Shown: positions 1,716 through 21,693 of the stretch, in pieces
Position numbering within the stretch: position 1 is the first letter of the stretch
Layout: each line of letters begins with the position of its first letter
Assembly (NCBI RefSeq): GCF_000092105.1
Contig: NC_014148.1
Location: 1,740,001 to 1,772,000 of the forward strand
DNA: 32,000 nucleotides
Direction: 5' to 3'
DNA from: Planctopirus limnophila DSM 3776
Lineage (GTDB): Bacteria; Planctomycetota; Planctomycetia; Planctomycetales; Planctomycetaceae
Made by a program: the position numbers and the translations under genes
The notes under the pieces: generated by a model
Database searches by the model: none
Told to the model about the DNA's origin: nothing
The model's input: only the letters and a program-made list of their open reading frames with translations

Positions 1716-2174
1716 GTGATGGATCACCCATTATCGAGGGAGCAGGAGGCAGGCGATGTGTTACGCGTGACCAATCGCTTGCTCATTCCACGTTCTGAGT
1801 TCCGCTGGACTTATAGCCGCAGTTCGGGCCCGGGCGGGCAGAATGTCAATAAGGTGAATTCCAAAGCAACGATGCACTGGCCGGCGATGATATCCAAGTC
1901 GCTCCCTGTGGAGCTTCGAGTGAGGCTGCGTCACGAGTTTGGGAATCGCTTGAATAATGAAGGCGAACTTGTCATTGCCAGCGATGAGCACCGAGATCAG
2001 AAGCAGAACATCCTGGCGTGTGAGCAGCGGTTAGTGCAGATTCTCAGAACAATCTCGATTCCACCGAAGGTTCGCCGCCCAACAAAGCCTTCGAAGGCCT
2101 CCAATGCCCGCCGATTGCAGGAAAAAAAGCACCGCGCCAACATCCGCAACAGCCGGCGGATCGATCCGACTTAG
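1716..2174 (+). CDS. arfB: Peptidyl-tRNA hydrolase ArfB (alternative ribosome-rescue factor B, class-I release-factor domain)
   Basis: This 152-aa ORF carries the GGQ motif in the context SSGPGGQNVNKVNSKA. It ends in a basic tail (KVRRPTKPSKASNARRLQEKKHRANIRNSRR) like E. coli YaeJ/ArfB. The start is GTG at 1716 followed directly by ATG at 1719. Confidence 0.85.
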   Translation: MMDHPLSREQEAGDVLRVTNRLLIPRSEFRWTYSRSSGPGGQNVNKVNSKATMHWPAMISKSLPVELRVRLRHEFGNRLNNEGELVIASDEHRDQKQNILACEQRLVQILRTISIPPKVRRPTKPSKASNARRLQEKKHRANIRNSRRIDPT

Positions 2175-2262
2175 CAGTGGCTGAACTCTTGTCGAATCAT
2201 CATTTCTCATGCGGTGTCACCGCAACTTAATGCCATCAACAGATGAGCATGAAGGTGCTGGC

Positions 2263-3621
2263 TTACTGTGGGTTGCCACTGCTGAAAGTTCGCTGGAGTT
2301 CTTCCAGGGAGGTTTTGCCTTCAACCACCAGACGCAGACCATCTTTCTGGAGGGTCTGCATTCCCTCCTTCCGCATCTGAGCTTTAATGGCGTCGGCAGT
2401 GGGGGACTGCTTGATGACCTCCTTCATCTCCTCAGTCCCTTCGAGCATTTCGAGCATGGCGACTCGGCCGTAATAGCCAATACCGCCACATTTGCCGCAA
2501 GGCTCGCCTTCCTGCCCAGTCTTTTCATCGACAGGAGCTTCCCCCTTTTTGTAAAGCACTTTGGTTTCGGGAGGGAGGCCGACTTTTGCCAGAAGCTTAG
2601 GGTTAGGGCGGAAAGCTTCTTTGCATTCTTCGCACAATTGCCGGATGAGTTTTGAGCTGATAACAAGTTGAACAGCATCGGCCACTTTGGCGGGATCACC
2701 GACCCAGGCGCAAAGCTGTGCCACGGCAGAAGCAGCATCTTTGGCAGGCATTTCTGCCATCAGAGTCAAAGTATCGCAGTTATCCACCAAGGTCTTCGCG
2801 TATTCGGCATCTTTAATCGGATCGACGAAGAGAACATCAGCCTCGGCCCGCTGGACACGAGCGATCGTTTGCACGATCGAATCCCCTTCCTGGCTTTCGA
2901 ACTTCGTGCAATTGATGATTTCGCGTGAGCCCAGATTGGCAACGGACATGCATGAGTACATGTACATGTCGATGCCGCGAATGGCGGCAAAGGTTGTGGT
3001 TGTGACACCACTCCCGGGAGGGCCGGCAATAATCACGAGACCTTTTCGATTGGGTGTTTTTTCGCGAATCTTCTGACGGACAATGCCTGGAAAGCCCAGT
3101 TCGTCGAGCGTATTGAGCTTGGCTTTCAAGTCGCGAAATCGAAGAGTCAGCCTCTCGACACCTTCCGCCTGTGGAGTAGTTTCCACAGAAATTTCCCACG
3201 GATGGCCTTCGTAGTCGCTCTTGAGACCACCTTGCTGAGTCGTGGCTTTGTTTTTGGGATCTAGCCCAGCCAGCAGTTTCATAATCTGAGTTATGGCTAC
3301 TGCCTGTGGCCTGGGCATACGGGAGCCGGCATAAACGACTCCATCCACCGAAAGTGTCGATTGGGCCCGCTCACCTTTGATGTCAATCCGCACCATTTCC
3401 GCTCGACGCGAAAGCGCATCGGTCACGAATTCTTTGGCAGGAATCAAACCAATCTGGGCCAGCTTGGCGTTGGCCTGCAGATCGGCTGATTTTCCATTAA
3501 GGGCCCCCTGAAATGAGACCAGTTCAATTTCTTCGTCTTCGTCATGATCTTCACCCCCACCCTGGTCTGCGGGTTTTTTGCCGAACATGCCGAAAATCAT
3601 GGACGATCCTTTGCCAAACAC
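2263..3621 (-). CDS. GspE/PilB-family (type II/IV secretion ATPase-like) protein with degenerate nucleotide-binding motifs
   Basis: This 452-aa ORF is collinear with GspE/PilB C-terminal domains: GLVIIAGPPGSGVTTT (Walker A position), ADVLFVDPIKDAEYA (Walker B position), LTLMAEMPAKDAASAV (His-box position), ISSKLIRQLCEECKE...CGKCGGIGYYGRVAMLEML (tetracysteine plus GYxGR), and GMQTLQKDGLRLVVEGKTSLEEL. The start is ambiguous: GTG at 3621, or ATG at 3600 or 3588. Confidence 0.85.
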   Translation of the reverse strand: MFGKGSSMIFGMFGKKPADQGGGEDHDEDEEIELVSFQGALNGKSADLQANAKLAQIGLIPAKEFVTDALSRRAEMVRIDIKGERAQSTLSVDGVVYAGSRMPRPQAVAITQIMKLLAGLDPKNKATTQQGGLKSDYEGHPWEISVETTPQAEGVERLTLRFRDLKAKLNTLDELGFPGIVRQKIREKTPNRKGLVIIAGPPGSGVTTTTFAAIRGIDMYMYSCMSVANLGSREIINCTKFESQEGDSIVQTIARVQRAEADVLFVDPIKDAEYAKTLVDNCDTLTLMAEMPAKDAASAVAQLCAWVGDPAKVADAVQLVISSKLIRQLCEECKEAFRPNPKLLAKVGLPPETKVLYKKGEAPVDEKTGQEGEPCGKCGGIGYYGRVAMLEMLEGTEEMKEVIKQSPTADAIKAQMRKEGMQTLQKDGLRLVVEGKTSLEELQRTFSSGNPQ

Positions 3622-3770
3622 GCAATCAAACGCACGTATGTCAGAAGCTGGCAGCCAGAACGGGAGGCGAGCTGTTGCCAGCTCATTCTAAACGACAGGG
3701 GTAACCAATCACACGCTCATTTATCATCGAGAATTTCCATCACGCAGACTTCTTGAAGTCTTGGAGAGCT

Positions 3771-4661
3771 CTACGACAGCAAGCCGTAGGTCTTGAGAGT
3801 CTGGACGAGTTTGGCTTCTTCGGCTGGGCCGAGGGGTGTCATCGGCAGCCGGAGTTCACCCGTATCGCGCCCCAGCAACTTCATGGCAGCCTTAATGGGA
3901 ATGGGATTGGTCGCCAGCCCCAGCAGATCGCGGCACAACGTAAAGAGCTTGAAGTGCATCGCCTGGGCTTCAGCAATCTTGCCAGCCTTCCAGGCAGCCA
4001 CCAGTTTGAGCATGTCCTGAGGAACGATGTTCCCGACGACCGACACAATGCCGCTGCCCCCTATCGAGAGGAGAGGCAAAGTCAGGCTGTCATCTCCTGA
4101 AAGCACCGTCAGATTTGTTTCCGCGAGGAGTCGCGAAGCCTGATCCATCGACCCTGTCGCTTCTTTGATAGCCACAATCGAAGGGATCTCGGCCATGCGG
4201 GCAATCGTCTCTGGCTCCATATTCTTAGCGGTTCGGCCGGGAATATTGTACAGAATGATGGGAATATCGACGGCTGTGGCGACGGCTTCGAAATGACGGA
4301 AAAAGCCTTCACCGGTCGGCTTGTTGTAATAAGGGGCGACCATCATCGCTCCGTCGGCACCGACCGACTTGGCGAACTTTGTGAGCTGGATCGCTTCCTG
4401 TGTGCTGTTTGAACCAGTACCCGCCATGACGCGAATGCGTCCAGCCGCGTGTTCGCAGGTGAGAGCGATCACACGCTCGTGCTCTTCATGCGTCAAAGTG
4501 GGGCTTTCGCCAGTCGTACCTACCGGGCAAATGCAGTTGGTGCCTGCTTCGATCTGAAAATCAATAACCTTCTTCAGAGCCACCTCATCCAGACGATCAT
4601 TTCGAAACGGAGTCACGATCGCGACGGTCAAACCAGCAAACTGTTCGCCTTTGCGAGGCAT
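3771..4661 (-). CDS. dapA: 4-hydroxy-tetrahydrodipicolinate synthase
   Basis: The sequence [10 protein letters not shown]...[26 protein letters not shown]...YNKP...ILYNIPGRT...IVAIKEATG is a typical DapA pattern. The track ORF starts at TTG 4670. I prefer ATG at 4661, which is preceded by GAGGG about 9 nt upstream. Confidence 0.9.
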
Positions 4662-4833
4662 TTTCAACAACCCTCAAGAAAGCCTGATACTCGCAGTCAA
4701 TGACATTCGAGGACGGGTATCAGTAGTAAGTGAAACCAAAAATCTCGATGTAACGATCGGGCCTGAAAGTGAAATTGTCCGAGAGAAACCCCGTAATGAC
4801 CAGTCCTATCCGGGATCATCAGGCCCTTTGTGT

Positions 4834-5769
4834 TTACGAATTGCTGGTACGGTTGCGCCAATCGATATTGGACATTTCTGCAAGTGCCAGCATCAATGCG
4901 TGAGTCCCATTGCGGCCAAAACCTTTGGCTTTCACTGAGAGATACAATTGTTCTGCGAGTGCCAGACCAGGTAAGGAAAGACCCATCCGGCGGGATTCGG
5001 CCAGTGCAATTCCCATGTCTTTGATGAAATGTTCTACGAAAAATCCCGGGTCGAAATTATTCGCAATCATGCGTGGGCCCAGATTCGAAAGCGACCAGCT
5101 TCCGGCTGCACCTGGCCCGACCGATTGCATCACTGTATTAAGATCCAGGCCGGCTCTATAACCATATAACAAGGCCTCGCAGACACCGATCATGCCTGTG
5201 CTGATCAGAATCTGATTGACCATTTTTGTATGTTGCCCAGCCCCGGGCCCCCCTTGATGCACAATTGTTTTCCCCATGACGGAAAACAATGGCTGCAAGG
5301 CGTTGACCACTTCTGCGTCTCCTCCCACCATGATGGAGAGGGCTGCATTCTTCGCACCGATATCTCCACCGGAAACAGGAGCATCGACAGCATGGACATG
5401 CTTCGCCTTGGCTGCCTGATAGATCTCAACGGCGAGAGAAGGTTCGCTGGTCGTCATATCGACGAGGACGGTGTTAGCCGCTGCCCCGGCGAGAGCACCT
5501 TTGGTCCCGAGTGTGACTTCCCGGACATCCGACGGAAAACCGACAATTGAAAAGACGACGTCGGAATTGGCGGCGACTTCCGCAGGTGTGGCTGCCCACT
5601 GAGCACCTCGCGAAATCAGATCAGCCGCTTTCTCCGGACTGCGGGTGTAAATTGTGGCGGTATAGCCGGCGTTCATCAGGTGACCGACCATGCTGCGGCC
5701 CATGACCCCAGTGCCGATCCAGCCGATACGTGTCTTTCCGGGAGCAAACTCAAGCACTGTAAACCTCAT
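4834..5769 (-). CDS. NAD(P)-dependent oxidoreductase, 3-hydroxyisobutyrate dehydrogenase / 2-hydroxy-3-oxopropionate reductase family
   Basis: This 311-aa ORF has an N-terminal Rossmann motif ([17 protein letters not shown]). It also has the family blocks DAPVSGG...A..G.LSIMVGG and KMVNQIL...EAL. Confidence 0.85.
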
Positions 5770-5979
5770 TCCTCAGTCGTGAATTTCTGGACGAGCATCA
5801 ACTGGCGATTTTTTAGTACATCATAATCTTTTGCAGTGTGGCAGTGTACCGTTCGTGAATCTCACCGTCATCAGTCCGCCCGGTGATATCCTGGTCAAAT
5901 GCATCATTCCCAGCGGTTCATCACTGGCTGTAGTCAAAAAAATTGCTGATGGAACCCCATGCAGTTCAGCCGAATTGGA

Positions 5980-6010
5980 GGCGAAAGTGGCGAAAGTACA
6001 ACTTTTCGCC
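5980..6010. repeat. Tandem 9-mer (GGCGAAAGT x2) followed by its near-complement
   Basis: GGCGAAAGT occurs at 5980-5988 and again at 5989-5997. ACTTTTCGCC at 6001-6010 can pair with either copy, giving about 9 bp with one bulged T. Confidence 0.5.
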
Positions 6011-6138
6011 AAGTTTCTTCAGTCAATTCCCGATGTCAAAAGTACGGGGGAGATTTCGTGGTCAGGATGACCGGCGAAATTTGCCGCTCGAATGTGGTCT
6101 GGAATCGGGCTGTTAGCTCGTGCGGAGATGGATGTCCG

Positions 6139-6525
6139 ATGGGAATGCTCAGTCCCGAACTTATGCTCGCCATTGAACAGGCGGCCCACGAAATGTTGAT
6201 GTGGGTAGGCTTTGGCACGCTGGTTGGGCTGTGTGGCAAAGCCATCATGCCCGGGAAAGATCCCGGCGGTGCTGTGGGGACTGTTTGTATCGGGATTTCC
6301 GGGAGTGTGATTGGTTGCGGATCTTTACTGTTGTGGGATTCGTCACTGCGAATCTCGCCTATCAGTGTTAGTGGATTTATAGCCGCTACTGCTGGAGCTT
6401 TTGCCCTCCTCTTGTTTTACCGGATTCTGTCGAACTCGTACTTCATTGTGGAAGCGGTCGATGGCGGAGATCTCAACAGTGGTGAGCGGGTGACTTACCG
6501 TCGCCGTCGCCGAACAGCCGCTTAG
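6139..6525 (+). CDS. GlsB/YeaQ/YmgE-family (transglycosylase-associated) small membrane protein
   Basis: The sequence is hydrophobic and Gly-rich (MLMWVGFGTLVGLCGKAIMPGKDPGGAVGTVCIGISGSVIGCG...FIAATAGAFALLLFYRIL), as in this family. The track ORF starts at 5959, but I prefer ATG 6139, which has GGAGA about 10 nt upstream. The part upstream of 6139 does not look like protein. Confidence 0.7.
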   Translation: MGMLSPELMLAIEQAAHEMLMWVGFGTLVGLCGKAIMPGKDPGGAVGTVCIGISGSVIGCGSLLLWDSSLRISPISVSGFIAATAGAFALLLFYRILSNSYFIVEAVDGGDLNSGERVTYRRRRRTAA

Positions 6526-6644
6526 ATTGAACTTCCCCCAACAAATACCCTCATGGGCGATTTGGTCACTGGGGTGCATCTTGGCAGACTTTCAAGTAGA
6601 TTTTCACGAAATACTGTGAAGAGATTATTTGAAAAGTATCCTGC

Positions 6645-8411
6645 GTGACTGAGTCCATGACCTCTTTTTCGTCGCATTTCTCAGCCAACGGTCAACCCGG
6701 GCCCCAGTGGCTGTCTGGCCAGGCCAACGACTCATTGCCAAGCTGCAGGCAGGGCGTGTTTCGAGTTCTCTATCAACTGAATTGTCCCAAGAACTCTGCA
6801 GAAGCTGTTGCCAGAGATATTGCACTCGAACAGACGGTCGAGGTGCCAGAGTCATTGATCACGGATGAAGTGATCTGGCAGAACTTCGCTGGCCAGGTGG
6901 TCTCTGTTCGATCAGTCTCTGAGCATGTTCAGGTGGCTTCGATTGAATACCACGCTCATCTGGCGAGTGGACACTTGGCGCAGTTGATGAACCTGCTGTT
7001 TGGAAATGTCAGTCTGAAACCCGGGGTTCGATTATTAGATGTCGAGTTTCCGGAATCTTTTCTCAGTGGATTGGCTGGGCCTAAACTTGGGATTGAAGGT
7101 CTCCGGTCAGCCTGCGGCGTTTGGGAGCGTCCTCTGCTGGCGACCGCCATCAAGCCTAAGGGGTCGTCGGTCGCGCAACTGGCACAGATCGCGGGAGAGT
7201 TTGCGGCTGGGGGCGGTGATCTCGTCAAGGATGATCACAATCTTGCAGAGAGCACGTTCGACGCCTTCCGAACTCGTGTCGAAGCCTGCCAGCAAGCCGT
7301 GCTTTCAAAGACTCCTCCAGGACAAAAATGCCTTTATTTTCCCAATCTTTCCGGGACGCTGCGTGATCTGGAACGGCAGGCAGCATTTTGTGTGGAATCC
7401 GGCATTCGGGGTGTCCTCGTGGCACCTATGATTGCCGGTCTCGAAACCATCCGCCATCTGTCGGAATCTTTTCCCTTGGCGATACTTGCCCATCCGACAA
7501 TGTCCGGTTCATTCCTGCAGGAAGGGCAGGGCCTATCGCATGCATTCTGGCTTTCGACCATGATGCGTCTGTGCGGTTGTGATGGAACTGTGTTCCCCAA
7601 TACGGGAGGAAGGTTTTCCTTCTCACAGGCAGATTGTCTGTCGATCGCAGACGCGGCACGAAAACCTCTCGGACGATTGAAGAGTTGTTTCCCGGCACCG
7701 GCGGGAGGCATGTCGTATGCATCGCTTCCAGGAATGGCTCGCGACTACGGCCCGGACACGATCTTTCTGGTCGGAGGCGGACTACTCGGTTACTCAGAAA
7801 ATCTCGCAGACAGCACGGCGGCATTTCGCTCCAGAATCGAAGAACTGTTCCTCACGAATCAAGCGTCTCAGAATTCCAATCCGGATCCTCGTGGCCAGTA
7901 TGTTTCTTCGTGTGAACTGCCAGCAGCGTATCCACCAGGAGCTCAAAATTCTGGCATCGCCGAGTATGCTCAGGGAAATGAAAAGTCAGGAATCTCGTCT
8001 TTAGATTCTGCCAATTCGATCGTGACTCAACTGCTCAAGTTTTTGCCTGGTTATCGATGGGAAAAACGCGAAGTTTCGGTTTACAAACCTAATGCTGGCT
8101 TGCCATTTGCGCATGTGGATCGACAGGAACTGATTGGGAAGTTTGGAGAGTCAACGGCATTTGATGTGCGATACTTCGAACTGGCGCCCGGTGGCTATTC
8201 GAGTCGTGAAAAGCATTTCCATACGCATGTCGTAATTCCCGTTCGCGGCCAGGGTCAATTGGAGTGCCAGGGACAGATTTTTCCTTTGCAGCACCTGGAT
8301 ATTGCTTACGTTCCGCCACTGGCTGTGCATCAATTGTCCAATCCAACCGATGAACCATTTGGTTTTCTGTGCATTGTTGATCATGATCGTGATGCGCCGA
8401 TGGCCCCTTAA
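6645..8411 (+). CDS. RuBisCO-like protein (form IV RuBisCO large-subunit homologue) fused to a C-terminal cupin domain
   Basis: This is a 588-aa ORF. Residues ~36-403 carry RuBisCO large-subunit landmarks: FGNVSLKPGVRLLDVEFP, GPKLGIEGLR, ERPLLATAIKPKGSS, GGGDLVKDDHNL, ILAHPTMSGSF, FPAPAGGMSY and FLVGGGLLGY. A ~55-aa low-complexity linker follows. Residues ~458-588 are a cupin with motif 1 (GGYSSREKHFHTHVVIPVRGQG) and motif 2 (DIAYVPPLAVHQLSN). The start is GTG 6645 or ATG 6657. Confidence 0.9.
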   Translation: MTESMTSFSSHFSANGQPGPQWLSGQANDSLPSCRQGVFRVLYQLNCPKNSAEAVARDIALEQTVEVPESLITDEVIWQNFAGQVVSVRSVSEHVQVASIEYHAHLASGHLAQLMNLLFGNVSLKPGVRLLDVEFPESFLSGLAGPKLGIEGLRSACGVWERPLLATAIKPKGSSVAQLAQIAGEFAAGGGDLVKDDHNLAESTFDAFRTRVEACQQAVLSKTPPGQKCLYFPNLSGTLRDLERQAAFCVESGIRGVLVAPMIAGLETIRHLSESFPLAILAHPTMSGSFLQEGQGLSHAFWLSTMMRLCGCDGTVFPNTGGRFSFSQADCLSIADAARKPLGRLKSCFPAPAGGMSYASLPGMARDYGPDTIFLVGGGLLGYSENLADSTAAFRSRIEELFLTNQASQNSNPDPRGQYVSSCELPAAYPPGAQNSGIAEYAQGNEKSGISSLDSANSIVTQLLKFLPGYRWEKREVSVYKPNAGLPFAHVDRQELIGKFGESTAFDVRYFELAPGGYSSREKHFHTHVVIPVRGQGQLECQGQIFPLQHLDIAYVPPLAVHQLSNPTDEPFGFLCIVDHDRDAPMAP

Positions 8412-8476
8412 TCGGGCTCGGTTAAGCGTATGGATTGAACGTCTTATTGCCTGTTGGAAAAGTACATCGAACCAGC

Positions 8477-10783
8477 ATGCAGTCCAGTGCCCAGCAACCA
8501 TCGTTGTTTACGCCAGAAGACCTTCCTGAGGTTTCGACCCCCTGGGAGATCGTGGACAGTGAAGATCAACTCTACGCTGAAGTGGTTTTCAACCTGCCCA
8601 TGCTCAAGTCCTACCACTATCTTGTCCCTTCGGGGCTCAGAGACAACATACGCCCCGGTTCGAGAGTGCGAGTTCCTTTTGGGACTGGCCAGAAGTTGAC
8701 TCAAGGGTACTGTGTCTCTTTAACAAGGACTCGACCTGCACATCGAAACTTTAAATCGATCGAATCCTTACTTGATGTCGCTCCACTGGTCGATGCCGCC
8801 ATGTTGCGACTGACGAGATGGATCAGTGAAGAGTACTTGTGCAGTTGGGGTCAGGTGCTCGATTCGGTAATCCCGGCGGGAGTGAAATCGAAAGCCGGGA
8901 CTCGTGAACTTTTGCACTTCGAACTTGCCGAAGGCTATGAAACTCGACTGACAACTCTCAAATTGTCGGCCACTCAGCAGCGAATTGTCGATGTCCTGAG
9001 ATCAACAACGGAGCCGATGGCCGGAGATGAATTGACCTCTCTGGCGGAATGTGGGCTCTCGCCTCTGCAAACCCTGCGGAACAAAGGGATTGTCGTTTCC
9101 ACCAAAATTCGCACCTGGTCAAAGTCGGTTTCCAGCGCAGGAGAGAACGATACTTCGGCCATTCTCCTGAATCGAAATCAACACTCGGCTGTCACCAGGG
9201 TCATCGAGTCGCTGGCATCAGGGAAGTCGGAAACTTTTCTACTCTACGGCGTCACTGGCAGTGGCAAGACAGAAGTCTATATCCGCGTGATTGAAGAAGT
9301 TGTGAGGTACGGTCGGCAGGCCATTGTGCTGGTGCCGGAAATCAGTCTCACTCCGCAGACAATCCGGCGTTTTCGTAAGCGATTTGCTTCGGTCGCTGTA
9401 TTGCATTCTCATTTGAGTGATGCCGAGCGGCATAGCTATTGGCAGCAGATCGCACGAGGCCAGGTGCAGGTGATTGTCGGGGCCAGAAGTGCGATTTTTG
9501 CACCGGCTCCGAACCTGGGTCTGGTGGTGATCGATGAAGAGCATGAAACGAGTTTCAAGCAGGATTCGACGCCTCGGTATCATGCTCGGGAGGTTGCCAG
9601 GCAACGAGTGCGCGATGCCGGGATACCACTGATTCTTGGTTCTGCCACACCGACTCTCGAAACCTGGCTTCGCGGGATTCGAAAAGAAGAGATCGTGCTT
9701 TCTCTGCCTTATCGAGTGGCTCAAAGGCCATTGCCACCTGTGATGATTGTCGATACCCGCAACGATCAGTCACTTCAGAAAGGAGCTTCTCTGGGGCGAG
9801 CCATGCTCGTGGCGATGCGAGAATCGTTAGCAAAGAAGGGGCAGATTATTCTGTTTCTGAATGTTCGGGGTTATTCGCCAGCACTCTTTTGCCGGGCCTG
9901 CGGGCAGAGCGTGAGGTGTCCGGATTGTGATGTCACACTCACATATCATAAACAGCGGCAAATTGCTCTGTGCCATAGCTGCGAGTATTCCATCGATCCA
10001 CCGACCAGTTGCCCGAATTGTGGAAAGCCCGGCCTGTTATTTCTCGGGCAGGGGACCGAGCGGTTGGAACACGAAGTGAAGGCTCGATTCCCCGGTGTCA
10101 GCGTGTTGCGCATGGATAGTGATACCATGCAGCAAAAAGGGAGCCACGATCGGGCTTTGGAATCTTTCCGGCAGGGTGAGGTGCGGATTCTGCTGGGAAC
10201 GCAGATGATTGCCAAAGGTCTGGATTTCCCCAACGTGACACTCGTGGGCGTGATTGATGCCGATACGTCTCTACATCAACCGGATTTTCGAGCATCTGAA
10301 CGAACTTTTCAGTTGATTGCTCAAGTCGCAGGGAGGACCGGTCGCGGTGAGCTGGGCGGCAAAGTGCTGGTGCAGACAGCGTGCCCGGATCAGCCAGCGA
10401 TCCTGTATGCCGCCCGGCATGATTATGCCGCCTTTGCACGGCAAGAACTTGAGCACAGGCATACTTTGGGATACCCGCCGTTTGTCCGCATCTTGCGGAT
10501 CATTCTTCGCGGTGAGATCGAAGCCGATGTGGAAAAAGCCGCCGAAAGAATTCGCTTGGGAATGGAATCGAAGGGGTTGGAAAGGGGTGGCATGCTGGCA
10601 AAGATCCTCGGCCCGGCACCTTGCCCAGTGGCCAGACTCAAGAAGTATTTTCGCTACCAGTTGCAGATTTCTCATCCTTCAGGAGAGGTTTTAGGTCAAT
10701 TGTGGAGAGACGTTGAACCCGTCGCGCCTGAACTCGTGCCCGTGGAAATCTCTGTCGATCTTGACCCGATCAGCTTTCGCTGA
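8477..10783 (+). CDS. priA: Primosomal protein N' (replication restart helicase PriA)
   Basis: It has Walker A (LLYGVTGSGKTEVYI) and the DEEH box (VVIDEEHETSFKQ). It has the Cys-rich zinc region (CRACGQSVRCPDCDVTLTYHKQRQIALCHSCEY...CPNCG) and the GRTGRG motif. The track ORF begins at TTG 8435, and I prefer ATG 8477 (MQSSAQQPSLF...). Confidence 0.9.
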   Translation: MQSSAQQPSLFTPEDLPEVSTPWEIVDSEDQLYAEVVFNLPMLKSYHYLVPSGLRDNIRPGSRVRVPFGTGQKLTQGYCVSLTRTRPAHRNFKSIESLLDVAPLVDAAMLRLTRWISEEYLCSWGQVLDSVIPAGVKSKAGTRELLHFELAEGYETRLTTLKLSATQQRIVDVLRSTTEPMAGDELTSLAECGLSPLQTLRNKGIVVSTKIRTWSKSVSSAGENDTSAILLNRNQHSAVTRVIESLASGKSETFLLYGVTGSGKTEVYIRVIEEVVRYGRQAIVLVPEISLTPQTIRRFRKRFASVAVLHSHLSDAERHSYWQQIARGQVQVIVGARSAIFAPAPNLGLVVIDEEHETSFKQDSTPRYHAREVARQRVRDAGIPLILGSATPTLETWLRGIRKEEIVLSLPYRVAQRPLPPVMIVDTRNDQSLQKGASLGRAMLVAMRESLAKKGQIILFLNVRGYSPALFCRACGQSVRCPDCDVTLTYHKQRQIALCHSCEYSIDPPTSCPNCGKPGLLFLGQGTERLEHEVKARFPGVSVLRMDSDTMQQKGSHDRALESFRQGEVRILLGTQMIAKGLDFPNVTLVGVIDADTSLHQPDFRASERTFQLIAQVAGRTGRGELGGKVLVQTACPDQPAILYAARHDYAAFARQELEHRHTLGYPPFVRILRIILRGEIEADVEKAAERIRLGMESKGLERGGMLAKILGPAPCPVARLKKYFRYQLQISHPSGEVLGQLWRDVEPVAPELVPVEISVDLDPISFR

Positions 10784-10854
10784 ATCAATTCCCAAGCCTT
10801 CGAAAAGCTGGGCCTCACGGCCGATTGTCGGGGTGTATCAATGAAGAACGGCAT

Positions 10855-11199
10855 TTACCGCTCGACACAAATCTGGTTGCAGATATGTCGGTCGGTCACC
10901 AATTGTTGTGTCATTGATGAGACAAGTTGCTTGGCATGATAGGACGGGCAAACACCGGTCAATATGACGCGATCATCCGACCAGCAGAGTTCGAGGTGAT
11001 GTACCAATCCTCTTAAACGATTGCGGAGAATCTCTGCCGTATCGTCTTCTTCCAATTTGTTGGCAGGGTCGATCATTTCAAAGACCGGCATGCTGGAAGA
11101 ACCAGGGTTGACCACAGCAGTCCCATCATTATCAGCCTCACGTGGCTCGTGTGGCCATGCCGTTGTGATCACCGCAAACTTCGCTGGTTGAGAAATCAT
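10855..11199 (-). CDS. BON-domain-like small protein (hypothetical)
   Basis: The C-terminal ~60 aa (LELCWSDDRVILTGVCPSYHAKQLVSSMTQQLVTDRHICNQICV) follow the BON pattern of a hydrophobic strand, xLxGxV, helix, then V.N.I.V. I prefer ATG 11199, preceded by AGGGA, over the track start at 11253. The assignment rests on pattern resemblance only. Confidence 0.5.
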   Translation of the reverse strand: MISQPAKFAVITTAWPHEPREADNDGTAVVNPGSSSMPVFEMIDPANKLEEDDTAEILRNRLRGLVHHLELCWSDDRVILTGVCPSYHAKQLVSSMTQQLVTDRHICNQICVER

Positions 11200-11702
11200 G
11201 GTGCCATCCCTGCTGGTGAATTCTTGAGCCACCCATGTCAAAACGACGGGCATTGAGAATGATTGTTGTACAAGACAATGACAATCATGCAGCCTTCCTT
11301 GACTGAATTCATTTGCTCTAAAAGCTACCCCTCGCGATTCAATCCGTCAAAGAAATTTTGTATGAATCCTGGGTTTGTAATTCTCTGCATATGTGCTGGG
11401 GAAATCTGGTTGGGTCGATATTCATTCTGTACTGGAAAATGGCTGTTTTCATGCTGTTTCTCTAGCAGGAAGTAACTTTTTCTGAAGCATCCATCCTGCG
11501 TGGAGAGACAACTTTCATCGCTTCATATAAGCTGTCGAAGAATGTCAGCCATGTAAATTCTCACGAATTGGAATCTCCCGGGTGATTTCTGGGGTGAAAG
11601 CCTCTTCTTGAGTGCCGGCCAATGTCTGTTATTGACTGCAACAGGTTGTGTGAACACCTCCCCTCGGTTTTATCCTGAGAGTCTTAAAAACACTAAAGGT
11701 TC

Positions 11703-12773
11703 ATGCTCATGCCTCTCTCTGAATTGGATCGCAAGTTTCTCGATGATCTCCTGGCGGCTCCCAGTCCCTCAGGATATGAGCAACCGATTCAGGATGTTGT
11801 CCGGGCTTATGCAGCCGGGTTTGCAGAGACTGTCACCACAGATCGACATGGGAATGTGATGGCCTGTGTGAATCCTCAAGGACAGGTGCGCATCATGCTG
11901 GCTGGCCATTGCGACCAGATTGGCCTGATTGTCAAAAACATCGACGAAAAAGGGTTTATCTGGGTGCAGACGATTGGTGGTTGGGATCCCATGGTCCTGC
12001 TGGGACAGCGCGTGCAGGTTTGGACACGCAGCGGACCGATTCCAGGGATTATGGCTCGCAAGCCGATTCATCTGCAGTCGCCGGAAGATCGCAAAGCTGT
12101 TCCCGAAATCAAGAATTTGTGGGTCGATATTGGCGCTCTGAATGGAGAAGAAGCCAGGGCGGCCGTGCGAGTTGGCGATGTCATTACCTGTGAACTTCAT
12201 CAGCAAACCATGCGAAACGGCTTTGTCAGCGGTGTGGCCATGGATGATAAGGTCGGAGTCTGGACTGTATTTACGGCGGCCCGCCGGGCGGCACTTCAAT
12301 CGCCAAAGGCGGCGATTTATGCAGTCTCCACCGTACAGGAAGAAATTGGTCTGCGCGGTGTGCAGACGAGTGCCGCCGCCATCCGTCCACAGATCGGTCT
12401 GGTGACTGATGTGACCCATGCCACCGATTGTCCGACGATTGATGAGAATCAGCATGGTCGCATCAAGCTGGGGCAGGGTCCGGTCGTTTATCGCGGGCCG
12501 AATACTAATCCTCGGGTCTTCGACCTGATTGAAGAAGAAGCTGCGAAGCACGGGATCCCTTATCAGCTGGCTTCATTAGGCACACCAGCCAGTAACGATG
12601 CGGCTCAACTCCAGTTGGCGGGCGATGGAGTGGCCATGGGATTGATCTGCATTCCCAATCGATACATGCACAGCCCAGTGGAAATGGTCTCGCTGGAGGA
12701 TCTGGATCACGCGGCCAATCTGATGGCCGCGTTTTGCGTGCGGATTCAGGATGATACGAATCTCATCCCGTAA
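11703..12773 (+). CDS. M42-family metallo-aminopeptidase (glutamyl aminopeptidase / FrvX-YsdC-like)
   Basis: This 356-aa ORF has PSPSGYEQPI, IMLAGHCDQIGLIV, GVAMDDKVGV, VQEEIGLRG, and CIPNRYMHSPVEMVSLEDL at the C-terminus. Together these are the typical M42 metal-ligand blocks. Confidence 0.85.
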   Translation: MLMPLSELDRKFLDDLLAAPSPSGYEQPIQDVVRAYAAGFAETVTTDRHGNVMACVNPQGQVRIMLAGHCDQIGLIVKNIDEKGFIWVQTIGGWDPMVLLGQRVQVWTRSGPIPGIMARKPIHLQSPEDRKAVPEIKNLWVDIGALNGEEARAAVRVGDVITCELHQQTMRNGFVSGVAMDDKVGVWTVFTAARRAALQSPKAAIYAVSTVQEEIGLRGVQTSAAAIRPQIGLVTDVTHATDCPTIDENQHGRIKLGQGPVVYRGPNTNPRVFDLIEEEAAKHGIPYQLASLGTPASNDAAQLQLAGDGVAMGLICIPNRYMHSPVEMVSLEDLDHAANLMAAFCVRIQDDTNLIP

Positions 12774-12868
12774 GCCTTCCACCAAAGGAATGCTGCCGCC
12801 AAAGATGTCGCAGCGAAGTTTCACTACAGCCAGAAACAGATGGCGTGATCCGCAGGGAATGAATCGTT

Positions 12869-15800
12869 ATGTCAACTCCCCGCTACACACCTCAACAAAC
12901 GCGGGCCTTGACTGAGAAATCGGTCTCGATCGCTCTTTCGGCAGGTGCTGGTTGTGGCAAAACCTTTGTGCTGACGAGAAGATTTCTCGGGTATTTAAAG
13001 CCGGGGCCTGAGCAATACCCGCTGACATCGCTGGTGGCCATCACCTTTACCGATAAAGCCGCTCGCGAGATGCGGGATCGGGTACGGGCCACTTGTCTGC
13101 AGCGTGTGCGAGAATGTCCACCCGAAGAAGCTGACCACTGGTTGAGTCTGCTGCGGGATCTGGATCGAGCACGCATCAGTACGATCCACTCCTTTTGCGG
13201 AAATATCCTGCGTTCGCATGCGATCGCGAGTGGTCTCGATCCCGAATTCACCACCCTCGAAGCGAGTGTGGCCGATTCGCTCCTGAGGCAATCGATTGAA
13301 GCCTCAGCCACGCGATTGCTGGTCAACGATCAACCTGCATTTCGGCTGCTGGCCGTCGATTATGGTATTGAGAAACTACTCGAATCGTCAGGAATTCTCG
13401 TTCGACAACGGCAACTGATCTCTCTAGCAGACTTTGCCGAAATGACAGCCGAAGAGTTGGCAGGGATCTGGCATCGTTGGCTGAAAGAGACCGGCTGGCC
13501 AGCGTTTGTGCGGCAGATCGAGCACCAGCGGACGTTTGTCAGGCTCAGTGAATTCATCTCTCGAACATCAGCCAATTCTCCCAAGCTTGACGAGAAGCTG
13601 AAGATACTTCGACAGATCATGGAGCAATTGAAGAGTCAGCAAGACTCTCCAGAGCCGGGGCGTCTGGCAGAATTGTTTGCGGAGTTATCGCTTCAGGCGC
13701 GAGTGGTGGGGGTGAAGCCTGATCATTGGGGATCTCCTGATGATCACGAACTGGCTAAGGAGTTGTTTACGCAGGTTCGTGACGATTGCAAAAAGTTGAT
13801 TGAAACCATTCAACTCGCTCAAACGGAGTTTGTCCCATACGCCGAGAAGAGCCTGGCATGGCTCTCAGTCGCAGGTGAGTCAATCAGAGATTACGAATTA
13901 ATCAAGAAGTCGCGAGCATGTGTTGACTTTGATGATCTGCTGGTTTTGAGCCGGGATTTGCTACGGAACGATCTGACGGTGCGTCAGGCGTTGTCGCGCT
14001 CCATTCGTGTGCTGATGGTGGATGAATTTCAGGATACGGACCCCGTTCAGGCCGATCTGGTCGAGATGATCTGCGGGAAGGAATTGACGACAGGGAAGTT
14101 GTTCCTGGTGGGTGACCAGAAGCAAAGCATCTATCGCTTTCGAGGTGCTGATCCTCTGGTGTTCAGATCGTTAAAAAGCAAAATTCCAGCGGCTGGTCAA
14201 CTCCCACTCACCATCAACTTTCGCAGTCAGCCCCCGATTCTGCACTTCGTAAACATTCTGTTTCGGCGGGTGATGGGAGCAGACTATGAGGCTTTGGAAC
14301 CCTCTTTCGCGGATGAGAAACCTGAACTTGAGCGGATTGAGTTTCTGTGGGCAACCACGGATGTCGTTGAGAACAAGGCGGTTCAGGGAAGTATCCCGAG
14401 CACAGTTCCCCTGGCGCAAGGATTGGCCGATGAACAGGCCCGGGATGCTGCTGATGCGGAAAGTCAGGATGTTGAAAACATCGATGATGATTCCCGCTCT
14501 GATTCCGGTGAGAAGCAGACTGCTCCTTTTCTGAGACGGCGTGAAGCGGATTGGATTGCCCGTCGTATTCTCGAGTTGCTGGCCGATCCAACACCGCGAA
14601 TTCGGGAGAAAAGTGGCCCGTGGCGAACCATCGTTCCTGGCGACATTACGATTTTGTTCCGGGCGTTGACGAACCTGGAGGTTTACGAACAGGCGTTAGA
14701 AGCGGCGGGAATCGACTATTATGTGGCGGGTGGCCGAGCGTTCTTTGCCCAGCAGGAAATCTATGATCTGGCCCACTTGTGTCAGTTTCTGGATGACCCT
14801 GAGGATGGGTTCAGTCTCGTGGGCCTGTTACGCTCGCCATTTTTCTGTTTCAGCGATCCACTGATTCATCGACTGGCTTCACGTGCGGGTGGTATCACCC
14901 AGTCGCTGTTTGCTGAAGCTTCGGTAGTCAGCGGTCTGTCGCCGGAAGAGACTGCACAGGTTCAGTTTGCAGCCCAGACTCTCGGTTCACTCGTGGAGCA
15001 GCGGGATCACTGGCCATTGGCGAGAATCATTCGCCGAGCCCTGGAATTGACGGGCTATGAGGCCATTGTCTCTCAGGAGTTTCTCGGTTCGCGGAAACTG
15101 GCGAATGTTCATAAAGCGATTGAACTGGCCCGACAGTTTGACCTGGCGGGTGGTAGTCGTGCGGCGTTTGTGACTCAGCTGCGGGAATCGATCGATCAGG
15201 AATCTCGCGAGGAGTTAGCCGCCACACATCCCGAATCGAGCAGTGTGGTGCGTTTGATGTCGATCCACCAATCCAAGGGACTTGAGTTTCCAGTCGTCTT
15301 TGTGGCCGATATGAATCGACCGCGAAAGACTGAATCGCTCCCACCGACGCTTCATCCGCAGTTAGGGGCTTTGGTGACACCTTCGAACCCCCTGGGTGAA
15401 CGACAAAAACATCCTGTGGGCCAATTCATTGAGATCATGGAAGAGGCTGCCAGCCTCGAAGAGTATCAGCGTCTGCTGTATGTCGCTGCCACACGAGCCC
15501 GGGATCTGTTGATCCTGTCTGCCGGGATCAAAGGTTTTGATGAAGGAAAGTTTTCGCCGTGGATGCTGGTCTTGAAGCAAGTCTTTCATCTCGAGACAGG
15601 TCTCTTGCGGAATGATCCCTGGTTTGCGAGCGGACATGAGGATGTGAAAACCCCGCAGGAGATTCCGCTCATTCGTACTCATCATCAGCCACCGCAATTC
15701 ATCGACCACAGAGTTCAGCGACAGGGTGTTCACAAGCTGTCATTTCCACAGGTCTGGAATGAACTAGAACTGGCCGAATCTTTGCCCTGGCCTCAACTCG

Positions 15801-16549
15801 TGGCGGATGTTCAGCGGGGTGCGGAAGGTCGCAGGCGATTGAGTGTTTCGCGACTGGAGGAGTTTCAGGAACAAAGTTCATCGAAATTGAAGAGTCTCGT
15901 TCCAGCAGGTGAATTGGAAGCACATTCGGCGAGTCTCAGTCGCAGCGATGCGGAACTGTTGGGAGAAATGATTCATGGCGTACTGGAGCGATTTGAACCT
16001 CGCGCCGCAGAGGAGTCCGAAAAGGCTTTGCTCCATCGACTGTGGCTGTGGTGCCAGAGACAGCCTGCACCACCTGGAGGCCAGATTCTGGAGCAGGCAC
16101 AGCAATGGCTCAAGACGTTTGCATCGACCGAGCTGATTGATGAACTGGCCATGGCCAGTGAACTGAATCGAGAACTGGAGTTCAGTCTCGATTGGAAAAT
16201 GACTGGAGAAGAGCCGAAACGAGAAACAGAGATCTATGGTCTGATCGATGTCCTGATGAAGGATTCTCAGGATGATTGGATCATTCTCGATTACAAGACG
16301 AGTCGCCTTGCGGCTGGAGTAACTGATGAACTGCTGCTCCAGCCGTATCGATTGCAATTGGGAACATATGCCCTCGCCGTGCAGCGGCTTTTTGGTCGCC
16401 TTCCCAAAAAAGCCGAACTGATTTTTATGCGTCCCAAGCCCCGCCGAGTGGTCTGGAACATGGAGCAGGTGCAAGTTTCCGATCTGGAACAACTTGTGAC
16501 CGAGGCAATCCATCAGTTGGATGCGGCACAGGCTTCGAGCTCATTCTGA
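12869..16549 (+). CDS. UvrD/Rep-superfamily helicase with C-terminal RecB-type PD-(D/E)xK nuclease (AddA/RecB-like)
   Basis: This 1226-aa ORF has SF1 motifs I (SAGAGCGKTF), Ia (ITFTDKAAREM), TIHSFC, II (MVDEFQDTDPVQ), III (LVGDQKQSIYRFRGA), IV (INFRS), V (SIHQSKGLEFPVVF) and VI (LLYVAATRARDLLIL). The nuclease motifs are GLIDVLMKDSQDDWIILDYKTSR and YRLQLGTYALAV. Confidence 0.85.
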   Translation: MSTPRYTPQQTRALTEKSVSIALSAGAGCGKTFVLTRRFLGYLKPGPEQYPLTSLVAITFTDKAAREMRDRVRATCLQRVRECPPEEADHWLSLLRDLDRARISTIHSFCGNILRSHAIASGLDPEFTTLEASVADSLLRQSIEASATRLLVNDQPAFRLLAVDYGIEKLLESSGILVRQRQLISLADFAEMTAEELAGIWHRWLKETGWPAFVRQIEHQRTFVRLSEFISRTSANSPKLDEKLKILRQIMEQLKSQQDSPEPGRLAELFAELSLQARVVGVKPDHWGSPDDHELAKELFTQVRDDCKKLIETIQLAQTEFVPYAEKSLAWLSVAGESIRDYELIKKSRACVDFDDLLVLSRDLLRNDLTVRQALSRSIRVLMVDEFQDTDPVQADLVEMICGKELTTGKLFLVGDQKQSIYRFRGADPLVFRSLKSKIPAAGQLPLTINFRSQPPILHFVNILFRRVMGADYEALEPSFADEKPELERIEFLWATTDVVENKAVQGSIPSTVPLAQGLADEQARDAADAESQDVENIDDDSRSDSGEKQTAPFLRRREADWIARRILELLADPTPRIREKSGPWRTIVPGDITILFRALTNLEVYEQALEAAGIDYYVAGGRAFFAQQEIYDLAHLCQFLDDPEDGFSLVGLLRSPFFCFSDPLIHRLASRAGGITQSLFAEASVVSGLSPEETAQVQFAAQTLGSLVEQRDHWPLARIIRRALELTGYEAIVSQEFLGSRKLANVHKAIELARQFDLAGGSRAAFVTQLRESIDQESREELAATHPESSSVVRLMSIHQSKGLEFPVVFVADMNRPRKTESLPPTLHPQLGALVTPSNPLGERQKHPVGQFIEIMEEAASLEEYQRLLYVAATRARDLLILSAGIKGFDEGKFSPWMLVLKQVFHLETGLLRNDPWFASGHEDVKTPQEIPLIRTHHQPPQFIDHRVQRQGVHKLSFPQVWNELELAESLPWPQLVADVQRGAEGRRRLSVSRLEEFQEQSSSKLKSLVPAGELEAHSASLSRSDAELLGEMIHGVLERFEPRAAEESEKALLHRLWLWCQRQPAPPGGQILEQAQQWLKTFASTELIDELAMASELNRELEFSLDWKMTGEEPKRETEIYGLIDVLMKDSQDDWIILDYKTSRLAAGVTDELLLQPYRLQLGTYALAVQRLFGRLPKKAELIFMRPKPRRVVWNMEQVQVSDLEQLVTEAIHQLDAAQASSSF

Positions 16550-19782: not shown

Positions 19783-20313
19783 GTGCACGGGTTGGGAAGG
19801 GAGAGATCATTGGCGTCAAACGATCACTGGCGTATCGAAGTCGCCGCCTCTCAATCGCCGTGGACTCATCCCCATTGGGTTGAATGGATCAAGTGGGTAG
19901 TAGCCTCATATGCTCAATGGACGGGACAATCCCTTTCCGATGCAGGCCCGGAAGAATTTCCCAGAGTGCTGTTCCATGCCCCGTTTGTGCTGGTTTCGCA
20001 TGGAAAGGAAGCTGACCCAGTCCTGTGCTACGGCAATCAGACAGCTCTGAAACTGTGGGAAATGAGCCTCTCTCAGTTTCTCGAAACACCTTCACGATAT
20101 ACGGCCGAACCGATGCATCGTGATGAACGGGCACAACTCCTCGAACGCACGACCAGGTACGGATTTGTCGACGATTACCAGGGAATCCGCATCTCTGCGT
20201 CGGGCACTCGATTTCGCATCCACCAGGCGACGGTCTGGAATGTGATCGACGCAGAGGGAACCTATCAGGGACAGGCCGCCATGTTCCACGAATGGACACC
20301 AATTGGTTCGTAA
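19783..20313 (+). CDS. MEKHLA-domain (PAS-like) protein
   Basis: The sequence FHAPFVLVSHGKEADPVLCYGNQTALKLWEMSLSQFLETPSRYTAEP...RAQLLERTTRYGFVDDYQGIRISASGTRFRIHQATVWNVIDAEGTYQGQAAMF matches my memory of stand-alone bacterial MEKHLA proteins. The start is uncertain. It is either GTG 19783 or, perhaps better, TTG 19810, which is preceded by GGGAGAG. Confidence 0.65.
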   Translation: MHGLGRERSLASNDHWRIEVAASQSPWTHPHWVEWIKWVVASYAQWTGQSLSDAGPEEFPRVLFHAPFVLVSHGKEADPVLCYGNQTALKLWEMSLSQFLETPSRYTAEPMHRDERAQLLERTTRYGFVDDYQGIRISASGTRFRIHQATVWNVIDAEGTYQGQAAMFHEWTPIGS

Positions 20314-20349: not shown

Positions 20350-21438
20350 TCAGGCACTCAGCACTTTGCGGACGTTGGCTTCCGTAACCGGCTGAATAAT
20401 GCCCTTTTCCGTGATGATCGCCGTAATGAGTTCCGCCGGTGCGAAATCGAATGCCGGGTTGTAAACATTGGCACCTGTGGGGGCGAGCTGGACACCCCCA
20501 GGATGAGTAATCTCAGTGGAGACTCTTTCTTCGATGGGAATTGATTTCCCTTCGAGAAGCGTCAGGTCGAATGTGGAGGATGGAGCTGAGACATAAAACG
20601 GAATTTTGTGGTAATGACATAACACCGCCACGCTGTATGTCCCAATTTTATTGGCGGCATCGCCACGGGCGGTGATGCGATCAGCCCCGACAATGGCGGC
20701 GCCAATCCGGCCTTCCTTCATGACCTGCCCGGCCATGGAATCTGTAATGAGAGTACAGGGGATTCCTCTTTGCATGAGTTCCCACATGGTCAGTCGGGCC
20801 CCCTGAAGCAAAGGGCGGGTTTCATCAGCATAAACATGAATCTGCTTGCCAGCGGCATGCGCATGAGCCAGAGCGGCGAACGCTGTTCCATCACCGGCTG
20901 TGGCTAATCCACCTGTATTGCAGTGTGTCAGAATCCCGCTGTTGGCAGGCAGCAGCGAGGCTCCGAATTCTCCCAGTCTGGCACACATGGCGCGGTCTTC
21001 AGTTTCAATGGCCTGTGCCTCAACTAACAATCTTTTCTGAAGATCGGCAGCACTCATTTGTGGGTGATCTTTGGCAACTTGCTCCATGCGCTGGATGGCC
21101 CAGAAGAGATTGACAGCCGTGGGCCGACTTTCGGCCAGGTATCTGGCCACCTTGGCCAATTGTTGATCGAACTCTCCTCGCGAGACATCTGCCCCTGGCT
21201 GAAAGAGTGGTTGCAGGCCGACGACTATTCCATAGGCCGCCGCCACACCAATCGCAGGAGCGCCGCGAACTTTGAGCTGCTTGATCGCCTCCCAGATGTG
21301 TTCCACGGTGTTCCCATCGATATGCTTTAACTGCGTGGGCAATACCGTCTGGTCGATCAGCTTCAGTGATCCGGTCAGTTCGTCCGCTTGCCACTCCAGA
21401 GCACGATAACTGGGCAACGACACAGGATTGGACACCAT
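20350..21438 (-). CDS. mtnA: S-methyl-5-thioribose-1-phosphate isomerase (methionine salvage)
   Basis: There is strong block similarity to MtnA: KVRGAPAIGVAAAYG, SRPTAVNLFWA, ILTHCNTGGLATAG, ADETRPLLQGARLTMWELMQRGIPCTLITDSMAG, IVGADRITARGDAANKIGTY, IPIEER and NPAFDFAPAELITAIITEKG. I prefer ATG 21438 (MVSNPVSL...) over the track start at 21483. Confidence 0.85.
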   Translation of the reverse strand: MVSNPVSLPSYRALEWQADELTGSLKLIDQTVLPTQLKHIDGNTVEHIWEAIKQLKVRGAPAIGVAAAYGIVVGLQPLFQPGADVSRGEFDQQLAKVARYLAESRPTAVNLFWAIQRMEQVAKDHPQMSAADLQKRLLVEAQAIETEDRAMCARLGEFGASLLPANSGILTHCNTGGLATAGDGTAFAALAHAHAAGKQIHVYADETRPLLQGARLTMWELMQRGIPCTLITDSMAGQVMKEGRIGAAIVGADRITARGDAANKIGTYSVAVLCHYHKIPFYVSAPSSTFDLTLLEGKSIPIEERVSTEITHPGGVQLAPTGANVYNPAFDFAPAELITAIITEKGIIQPVTEANVRKVLSA

Positions 21439-21693
21439 GGGGAATTCTCTTTGGCTTGGCAGAACATTCAGGAAGATTCTCAAGAGTTGGTACGCTAACC
21501 GAAATGACTAAGACGTACCAACGAAGGCCACTTTCCCAGCGGTTTGAAGTTCAAAGTCGCCGATTTCAATCGTGGTCGTTCGGGACGAGACAAACTTTTT
21601 CGGAAAGAGGTGAACCCGAACCCGACAGTTGATAACATGCAAATCTGTTCATGGAACATGAAATTGGGATGTTTTGACCTCTGGAGTCTGGCC

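Follow-up and report, generated by a model that had tools for sequence, protein, structure and literature searches.

A RuBisCO-like protein fused to a cupin in Planctopirus limnophila carries the KDDH signature of a known isomerase clade and is a predicted bifunctional enzyme of the methylthioadenosine-isoprenoid shunt

Results

A RuBisCO-like protein and a cupin in one reading frame

The 32,000-nucleotide stretch of Planctopirus limnophila DSM 3776 analysed here (contig NC_014148.1, positions 1,740,001–1,772,000; hereafter the window) contains, at positions 6645–8411 of its forward strand, an open reading frame (ORF) of 588 amino acids plus stop, in which a RuBisCO-like protein (RLP) is fused to a cupin; Pfam matches it to both RuBisCO_large and Cupin_2. 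The two-domain fold of the RuBisCO large subunit is evident from Pfam, from an AlphaFold2 (AF2) model and from Foldseek. The RLP N-terminal domain comprises residues ~38–140 (6756–7064), with a weak PF02788 match at residues 50–139 and a model that is confident from residue 38 onwards, and the catalytic barrel domain comprises residues 149–399 (7089–7841), matched by PF00016 (E = 3e-21) and by the structure 3qfw. A low-complexity interdomain linker at residues ~405–460 (7857–8024) leads to the cupin domain at residues 462–588 (8028–8408), all on the forward strand. The mean predicted local distance difference test score (pLDDT) of the model is 86, with values above 90, and mostly above 95, at residues 40–400 and below 50 at residues 1–30. 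The start codon is GTG, and residues 1–35 (6645–6750) are both unconserved and predicted with low confidence; most homologues begin near residue 35, and a protein 98% identical to this one (P0001) begins at an ATG four codons in. Because these first ~35 residues are an unconserved extension, the annotated start is uncertain, and translation may in fact begin further downstream.

Judged by its sequence, the N-terminal 400-residue part of the protein belongs to the DeepYkr type of form IV RuBisCO-like proteins. Its closest solved structure is 3qfw, the RLP of Rhodopseudomonas palustris BisB18, with an E value of 1e-76 as against 3e-45 for MtnW, and the same structure is the best Protein Data Bank match of the AF2 model in Foldseek (TM-score 0.91–0.93, root-mean-square deviation 2.1–2.2 Å). 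In a neighbour-joining distance tree, which is small and does not cover the full superfamily, the clade of fused proteins and the unfused DeepYkr-type clade come out as sisters, well apart from MtnW. The signatures LFGN, KP, KDDH, AHP, FPNxGGRF and PxPAGG are common to the fused and unfused clades. The DeepYkr RLPs named here for comparison (Rru_A1998, RPA2169 and 3qfw) come from Proteobacteria and resemble the ORF product in fold, in these signature residues and in having a cupin partner of the Rru_A2000 type; they differ from it in that the present type occurs in Planctomycetes-type genomes, is only ~35–40% identical to them, is fused to its cupin, and has Lys or Arg rather than Gln at the position equivalent to RuBisCO K177.

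The resemblance to MtnW, the 2,3-diketo-5-methylthiopentyl-1-phosphate enolase of the YkrW clade from Bacillus and Geobacillus (structures 2zvi and 2oek), is more general. The RLP fold, the positions of the carbamylated Lys and the Asp, and the Lys equivalent to K175 are common to both, and MtnW also acts in methylthioadenosine salvage, as is proposed below for the ORF product. However, MtnW has KDDE instead of KDDH and FPSPYGS instead of FPNxGGRF, lacks a cupin partner, and has a Lys at the position of RuBisCO N123, where the ORF product has N121 (7005–7007, in its N-terminal domain; LFGN here, FGK in MtnW). That Lys, Lys98 in the Geobacillus kaustophilus enzyme, reportedly serves as the general base.

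The protein also belongs to the same superfamily as RuBisCO forms I–III, with the same fold and with equivalents of K175, K177, K201, D203 and H294, yet it differs from them by the changes E204 to His, R295 to Pro and S379 to Ala and by replacement of the loop-6 region with H327 and K334. A bona fide RuBisCO is rejected because the corresponding models score far below their cut-offs (TIGR03326, 139 bits against 497; NF003252, 138 against 438) and because R295, S379 and loop 6 are replaced, and carboxylase function is not expected.

Register and conservation of the KDDH motif

A first-pass annotation of this DNA had described the ORF as an RLP with the motif KDDH at 7227–7238, and the codons, the reading frame and the PF00016 match bear it out. 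The codons AAG GAT GAT CAC encode K195-D196-D197-H198 within the peptide GGGDLVKDDHNL (residues 189–200); their distance from the first nucleotide of the ORF (7227 − 6645) is divisible by three, which puts them in its reading frame. In HMMER alignments KDDH falls on the KDDE of the MtnW structures, with no gaps nearby. A BLASTP comparison with a fragment of a form I large subunit, which served for register only, places I169-K170-P171-K172 (7149–7160) on the IKPK containing K175 and K177, and KDDH on the KDDE that runs from K201 to E204; aligning 26 sequences with MAFFT gave the same register. K195 and D197 accordingly correspond to RuBisCO K201 and D203 in all of these alignments, as the annotation had proposed in stating that the protein keeps the Asp ligand and the Lys that is carbamylated in RuBisCO. 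Its placement of a His at the position of the Glu ligand also stands, with H198 set on Glu204 by three independent alignments. The Lys of KDDE in RuBisCO (K201) is the residue that becomes carbamylated. Among 57 aligned homologues K195, D196 and D197 are invariant and H198 is at least 90% conserved; conservation across this set indicates that the motif is under strong constraint and has not arisen by chance.

The lysines upstream of the motif are less uniform. K170, the equivalent of K175, is invariant, while position 172, equivalent to K177, varies within the clade among Lys, Arg, Gln, Val and Leu. Unfused members have Gln there; the 120 closest homologues of the ORF protein, which formed our second sample and are all fused, mostly have Arg (85 of 120, reading LKPRG in 83 and IKPRG in 2), with Lys in a further 21. 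The earlier statement that the IKPK pair is fully retained is therefore right for this protein, which aligns to the IKPK of K175 and K177 and has both Lys, but the second of them is not conserved in its clade. The accompanying remark that Bacillus MtnW keeps only the second Lys was mistaken: alignments show that MtnW keeps the first (FKGVIG), and this is also the case in Geobacillus.

KDDH is a signature of the clade

The extent of the His was assessed in two samples. A one-genome-per-species scan gave 551 relatives, and residues were read in the 80 closest to 3qfw (53–100% identity); these best 80 of 551 come mostly from Alphaproteobacteria, together with Burkholderiales, Calidithermus and one Solibacteraceae metagenome-assembled genome, and Rhodospirillum rubrum is not among them. 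All 80 loci read KDDH, including those of 11 Rhodopseudomonas genomes, which represent the R. palustris CGA009 protein and have the His in 11 of 11 cases. The structure 3qfw itself, whose sequence is 100% identical to the gene of R. palustris BisB18 (L001), reads GGVDLIKDDHGL, that is, KDDH. In the second sample, the 120 homologues closest to the ORF protein, 117 have KDDH and three (P0093, P0102 and P0110) have KDDQ, which indicates that Gln is naturally tolerated at position 198.

The RLP of R. rubrum and RLP1 of R. palustris (RPA2169) belong to the DeepYkr clade, and experiments both in vivo and in vitro have established them as 5-methylthioribulose-1-phosphate 1,3-isomerases (PMC5893883). 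The His is thus common in a clade with characterised members, and, being universal in the clade that holds R. palustris RLP1 and 3qfw, it does not distinguish the present protein from characterised RLPs; the first-pass suggestion that it did so was contradicted by 3qfw and by all 80 DeepYkr-type loci. KDDH is the ordinary clade signature of a known, characterised isomerase group and not a peculiarity of this gene. If His198 has any effect on metal preference relative to Glu-bearing RLPs, that effect would operate at the level of the clade and would not be specific to this gene.

The cupin domain, the linker and the fusion

The C-terminal cupin, which the first-pass annotation had overlooked, tells more about the ORF than any of its other features. 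It matches the structures 3ibm (E = 5e-30), 3jzv, which is Rru_A2000 (2e-21), and 3kgz (2e-19), as well as Pfam Cupin_2 (32.5 bits against a cut-off of 27.2), and is a homologue of Rru_A2000. Residues E522, H524, H526, H528, H562, Q563 and C576, the last within the motif GFLC, are invariant in the 57 fused homologues and align to identical residues in 3jzv, 3kgz and 3ibm. The metal-binding His cluster and the GFLC Cys of such cupins are reported to have a catalytic role. Stand-alone cupins of the Rru_A2000 type have in common with the ORF the Cupin_2 fold, the E-x-H-x-H-x-H and H-Q motifs and the GFLC Cys, and they are encoded directly after the RLP; the ORF differs in that its cupin is a C-terminal domain, is preceded by an SxCExP linker and lacks a C-terminal tail of ~25 residues. 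The fused cupins stop just past an RDxPxxP motif (window 8400–8411, ending DRDAPMAP before the stop). The stand-alone cupins (L001, L008, L012 and L019) continue for ~25 extra residues of the form LPTxxDLxxL...AAFL, a tail that was lost in the fused clade.

Rru_A2000 and RPA2170 are 1-methylthioxylulose-5-phosphate methylsulfurylases, which act next after the RLP in the methylthioadenosine (MTA)-isoprenoid shunt, use glutathione in vivo and yield DXP, or 1-deoxy-D-xylulose-5-phosphate (PMC5893883; PMC4334135). In 77 of the 80 loci related to 3qfw, a separate cupin gene starts ~10–220 nucleotides downstream of the RLP stop; the other three comprise one fusion (L047) and two loci truncated where their contig ends. 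In the second sample all 120 proteins are fusions of an RLP with Cupin_2, 512–611 residues long, and where their source is named it is Planctomycetes or Planctomycetaceae; one of them (P0056) is named 'S-methyl-5-thioribulose 1-phosphate isomerase' by JGI. The exception among the unfused loci, from an uncultured alphaproteobacterium (L047:5926–7524), differs in its linker and still possesses the C-terminal tail. Such differences mark it as an independent event, and we conclude that the fusion arose at least twice.

The linker has pLDDT values below 50 at residues 407–421 and 428–458, and within 407–458 only residues 422–427 exceed 50. This short stretch overlaps the motif S421-S422-C423-E424-L425-P426 (7905–7922). 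A motif of the S-[AS]-C-E-[LIVM]-P type is found in 106 of the 120 fused homologues, and in the 57-sequence alignment S421, C423 and E424 each reach a conservation of at least 90%; it occurs neither in unfused RLP/cupin pairs nor in the L047 fusion. The presence of a conserved linker Cys beside a thiol-dependent cupin is suggestive. A literature search, which did not cover the primary RLP papers, found no paper on this His or on an RLP–cupin fusion. In our view only the fusion and its Cys-containing linker motif are new here, and mildly so.

Genomic surroundings

A gene for MtnA, S-methyl-5-thioribose-1-phosphate isomerase, is present in the window at 20350–21483 on the reverse strand (TIGR00512, 422 bits against a cut-off of 279; Pfam IF-2B). 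It lies 12 kb from the RLP–cupin gene on the opposite strand and is not in an operon with it. In the window, as in a syntenic relative (L081), the fusion gene itself is flanked by a small membrane-protein ORF and by priA, and in a further relative (L082) it has unrelated surroundings; its neighbours in all three are unrelated housekeeping genes and provide no operon support.

L081 is a Logan contig of 60 kb (SRR25993461), and its fusion protein shares 68% identity with the present one; the synteny covers positions 1716–16549 of the window. The order in both is RF-1 domain protein, T2SSE ATPase, dihydrodipicolinate synthase, NAD-binding dehydrogenase, small ORF, RLP–cupin and PriA, followed by an M42 peptidase and a UvrD/PD-(D/E)XK helicase-nuclease; L081 has three sugar-nucleotide/glycosyltransferase genes after priA, which the window lacks. 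Adjoining mtnA, at 19783–20313 on the forward strand, is a gene for a stand-alone MEKHLA-domain protein (PF08670, E = 2e-54), a domain familiar mainly from HD-ZIP III proteins of plants and from some bacteria. Rfam and tRNA scans of the window gave no matches.

Discussion

We consider it likely that the product of the ORF is bifunctional and acts in the MTA-isoprenoid shunt, the 'rubrum-type' route of methionine/methylthioadenosine salvage, in which an RLP isomerase and a cupin methylsulfurylase are joined in one chain. In the proposed scheme MtnA would supply 5-methylthio-D-ribulose-1-phosphate (MTRu-1-P), which the RLP domain would isomerise to MTXu-5-P (1-methylthio-D-xylulose-5-phosphate), moving the carbonyl via metal-stabilised enediolate intermediates. 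The putative metal would be held by a carbamate on K195, by D197 and probably by H198. The cupin domain would then remove the methylthio group with the help of a thiol, giving DXP and either methyl disulfide or methanethiol. H198 could act as the third metal ligand, as a second-shell residue or as a proton shuttle; the natural His-to-Gln variants mildly favour a ligand or hydrogen-bonding role over obligatory acid-base catalysis.

Several observations weigh against this assignment. The activities of the fused proteins are predicted, and the enzymes assayed for isomerisation of MTRu-1-P to MTXu-5-P/MTRu-5-P are those of R. rubrum and R. palustris only (PMC5893883); identity to these characterised proteins is no higher than ~35–40% in either domain. 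KDDH in R. rubrum Rru_A1998 is itself presumed from its occurrence in all 80 of the relatives that were read. The fused proteins further depart from the unfused ones in having Arg or Lys instead of Gln at the K177 position, in the Cys-containing linker motif and in the loss of the cupin tail, and because of these three differences a shift in substrate or in thiol co-substrate is possible. Finally, neither here nor in the two relatives does the fusion cluster with mtnA, mtnP or genes of the methylerythritol phosphate (MEP) pathway.

The reading from which the analysis set out, that the change from Glu to His marks this particular RLP with a metal preference or chemistry unlike that of all characterised RLPs, now appears very unlikely. 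A His does occupy the Glu204 position, at which MtnW as well as form I RuBisCO carries Glu, but the same His is universal in the clade to which the characterised R. palustris RLP1 and 3qfw belong. Even less probable is a pairing in which the RLP domain would be a 2,3-diketo-5-methylthiopentyl-1-phosphate enolase of the MtnW type, as in classical methionine salvage, and the cupin an acireductone dioxygenase (ARD) resembling MtnD. MtnD is likewise a cupin, and the MtnW models are the best NCBIfam matches by E value; their scores, however, are far below the cut-offs (TIGR03332, 164 bits against 513.6; NF007095, 200 against 409), the protein has LFGN and KDDH instead of FGK and KDDE, and the tree separates it from MtnW. 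On the side of the cupin, the match is to the Rru_A2000 type and to Cupin_2, with no ARD family among the Pfam matches. We therefore reject the MtnW enolase as an assignment for the RLP domain.

A further alternative, which stays close to the shunt enzyme, is that the fused planctomycete clade has diverged towards a related substrate or co-substrate, such as another 5-substituted ribulose-1-phosphate, or Cys423 in place of glutathione as the thiol acceptor. The three departures from the unfused proteins are specific to the fused clade, and the modest identity to the characterised enzymes leaves room for such a change. Yet the remaining active-site signatures of both domains are common to the unfused clade, mtnA is present, and the linker that carries C423 is predicted to be disordered; on balance we regard this divergence as unlikely. 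With slightly less confidence still, one may imagine the planctomycete fusions as a distinct bifunctional form of the shunt, in which MTXu-5-P would go directly from one domain to the other, the near-invariant C423 would act as an internal thiol or a mobile arm, taking the methylthio group in place of glutathione, and His198 (Gln in a few members) instead of Glu would, at the level of the clade, be what adapts the RuBisCO metal site to 1,3-isomerisation. We offer this picture as a speculation that is probably wrong in its full form.

The KDDH finding carries little weight by itself, being a family signature that does not mark the gene as unusual. With this gene a known two-enzyme step gains a new member, fused and of planctomycete type. 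The fusion provides independent support, of the Rosetta-stone type, for the view that DeepYkr RLPs and cupins of the Rru_A2000 type act consecutively. The strict occurrence of His, occasionally Gln, at the Glu204 position in ~200 sequences makes this residue a clean target for mutagenesis aimed at the retuning of the metal site towards isomerisation. With the fusion, the predicted MTA-isoprenoid shunt would extend from Proteobacteria to many Planctomycetes-type genomes, which is of relevance to sulfur salvage, to the release of methanethiol and to a route to DXP that does not depend on Dxs.

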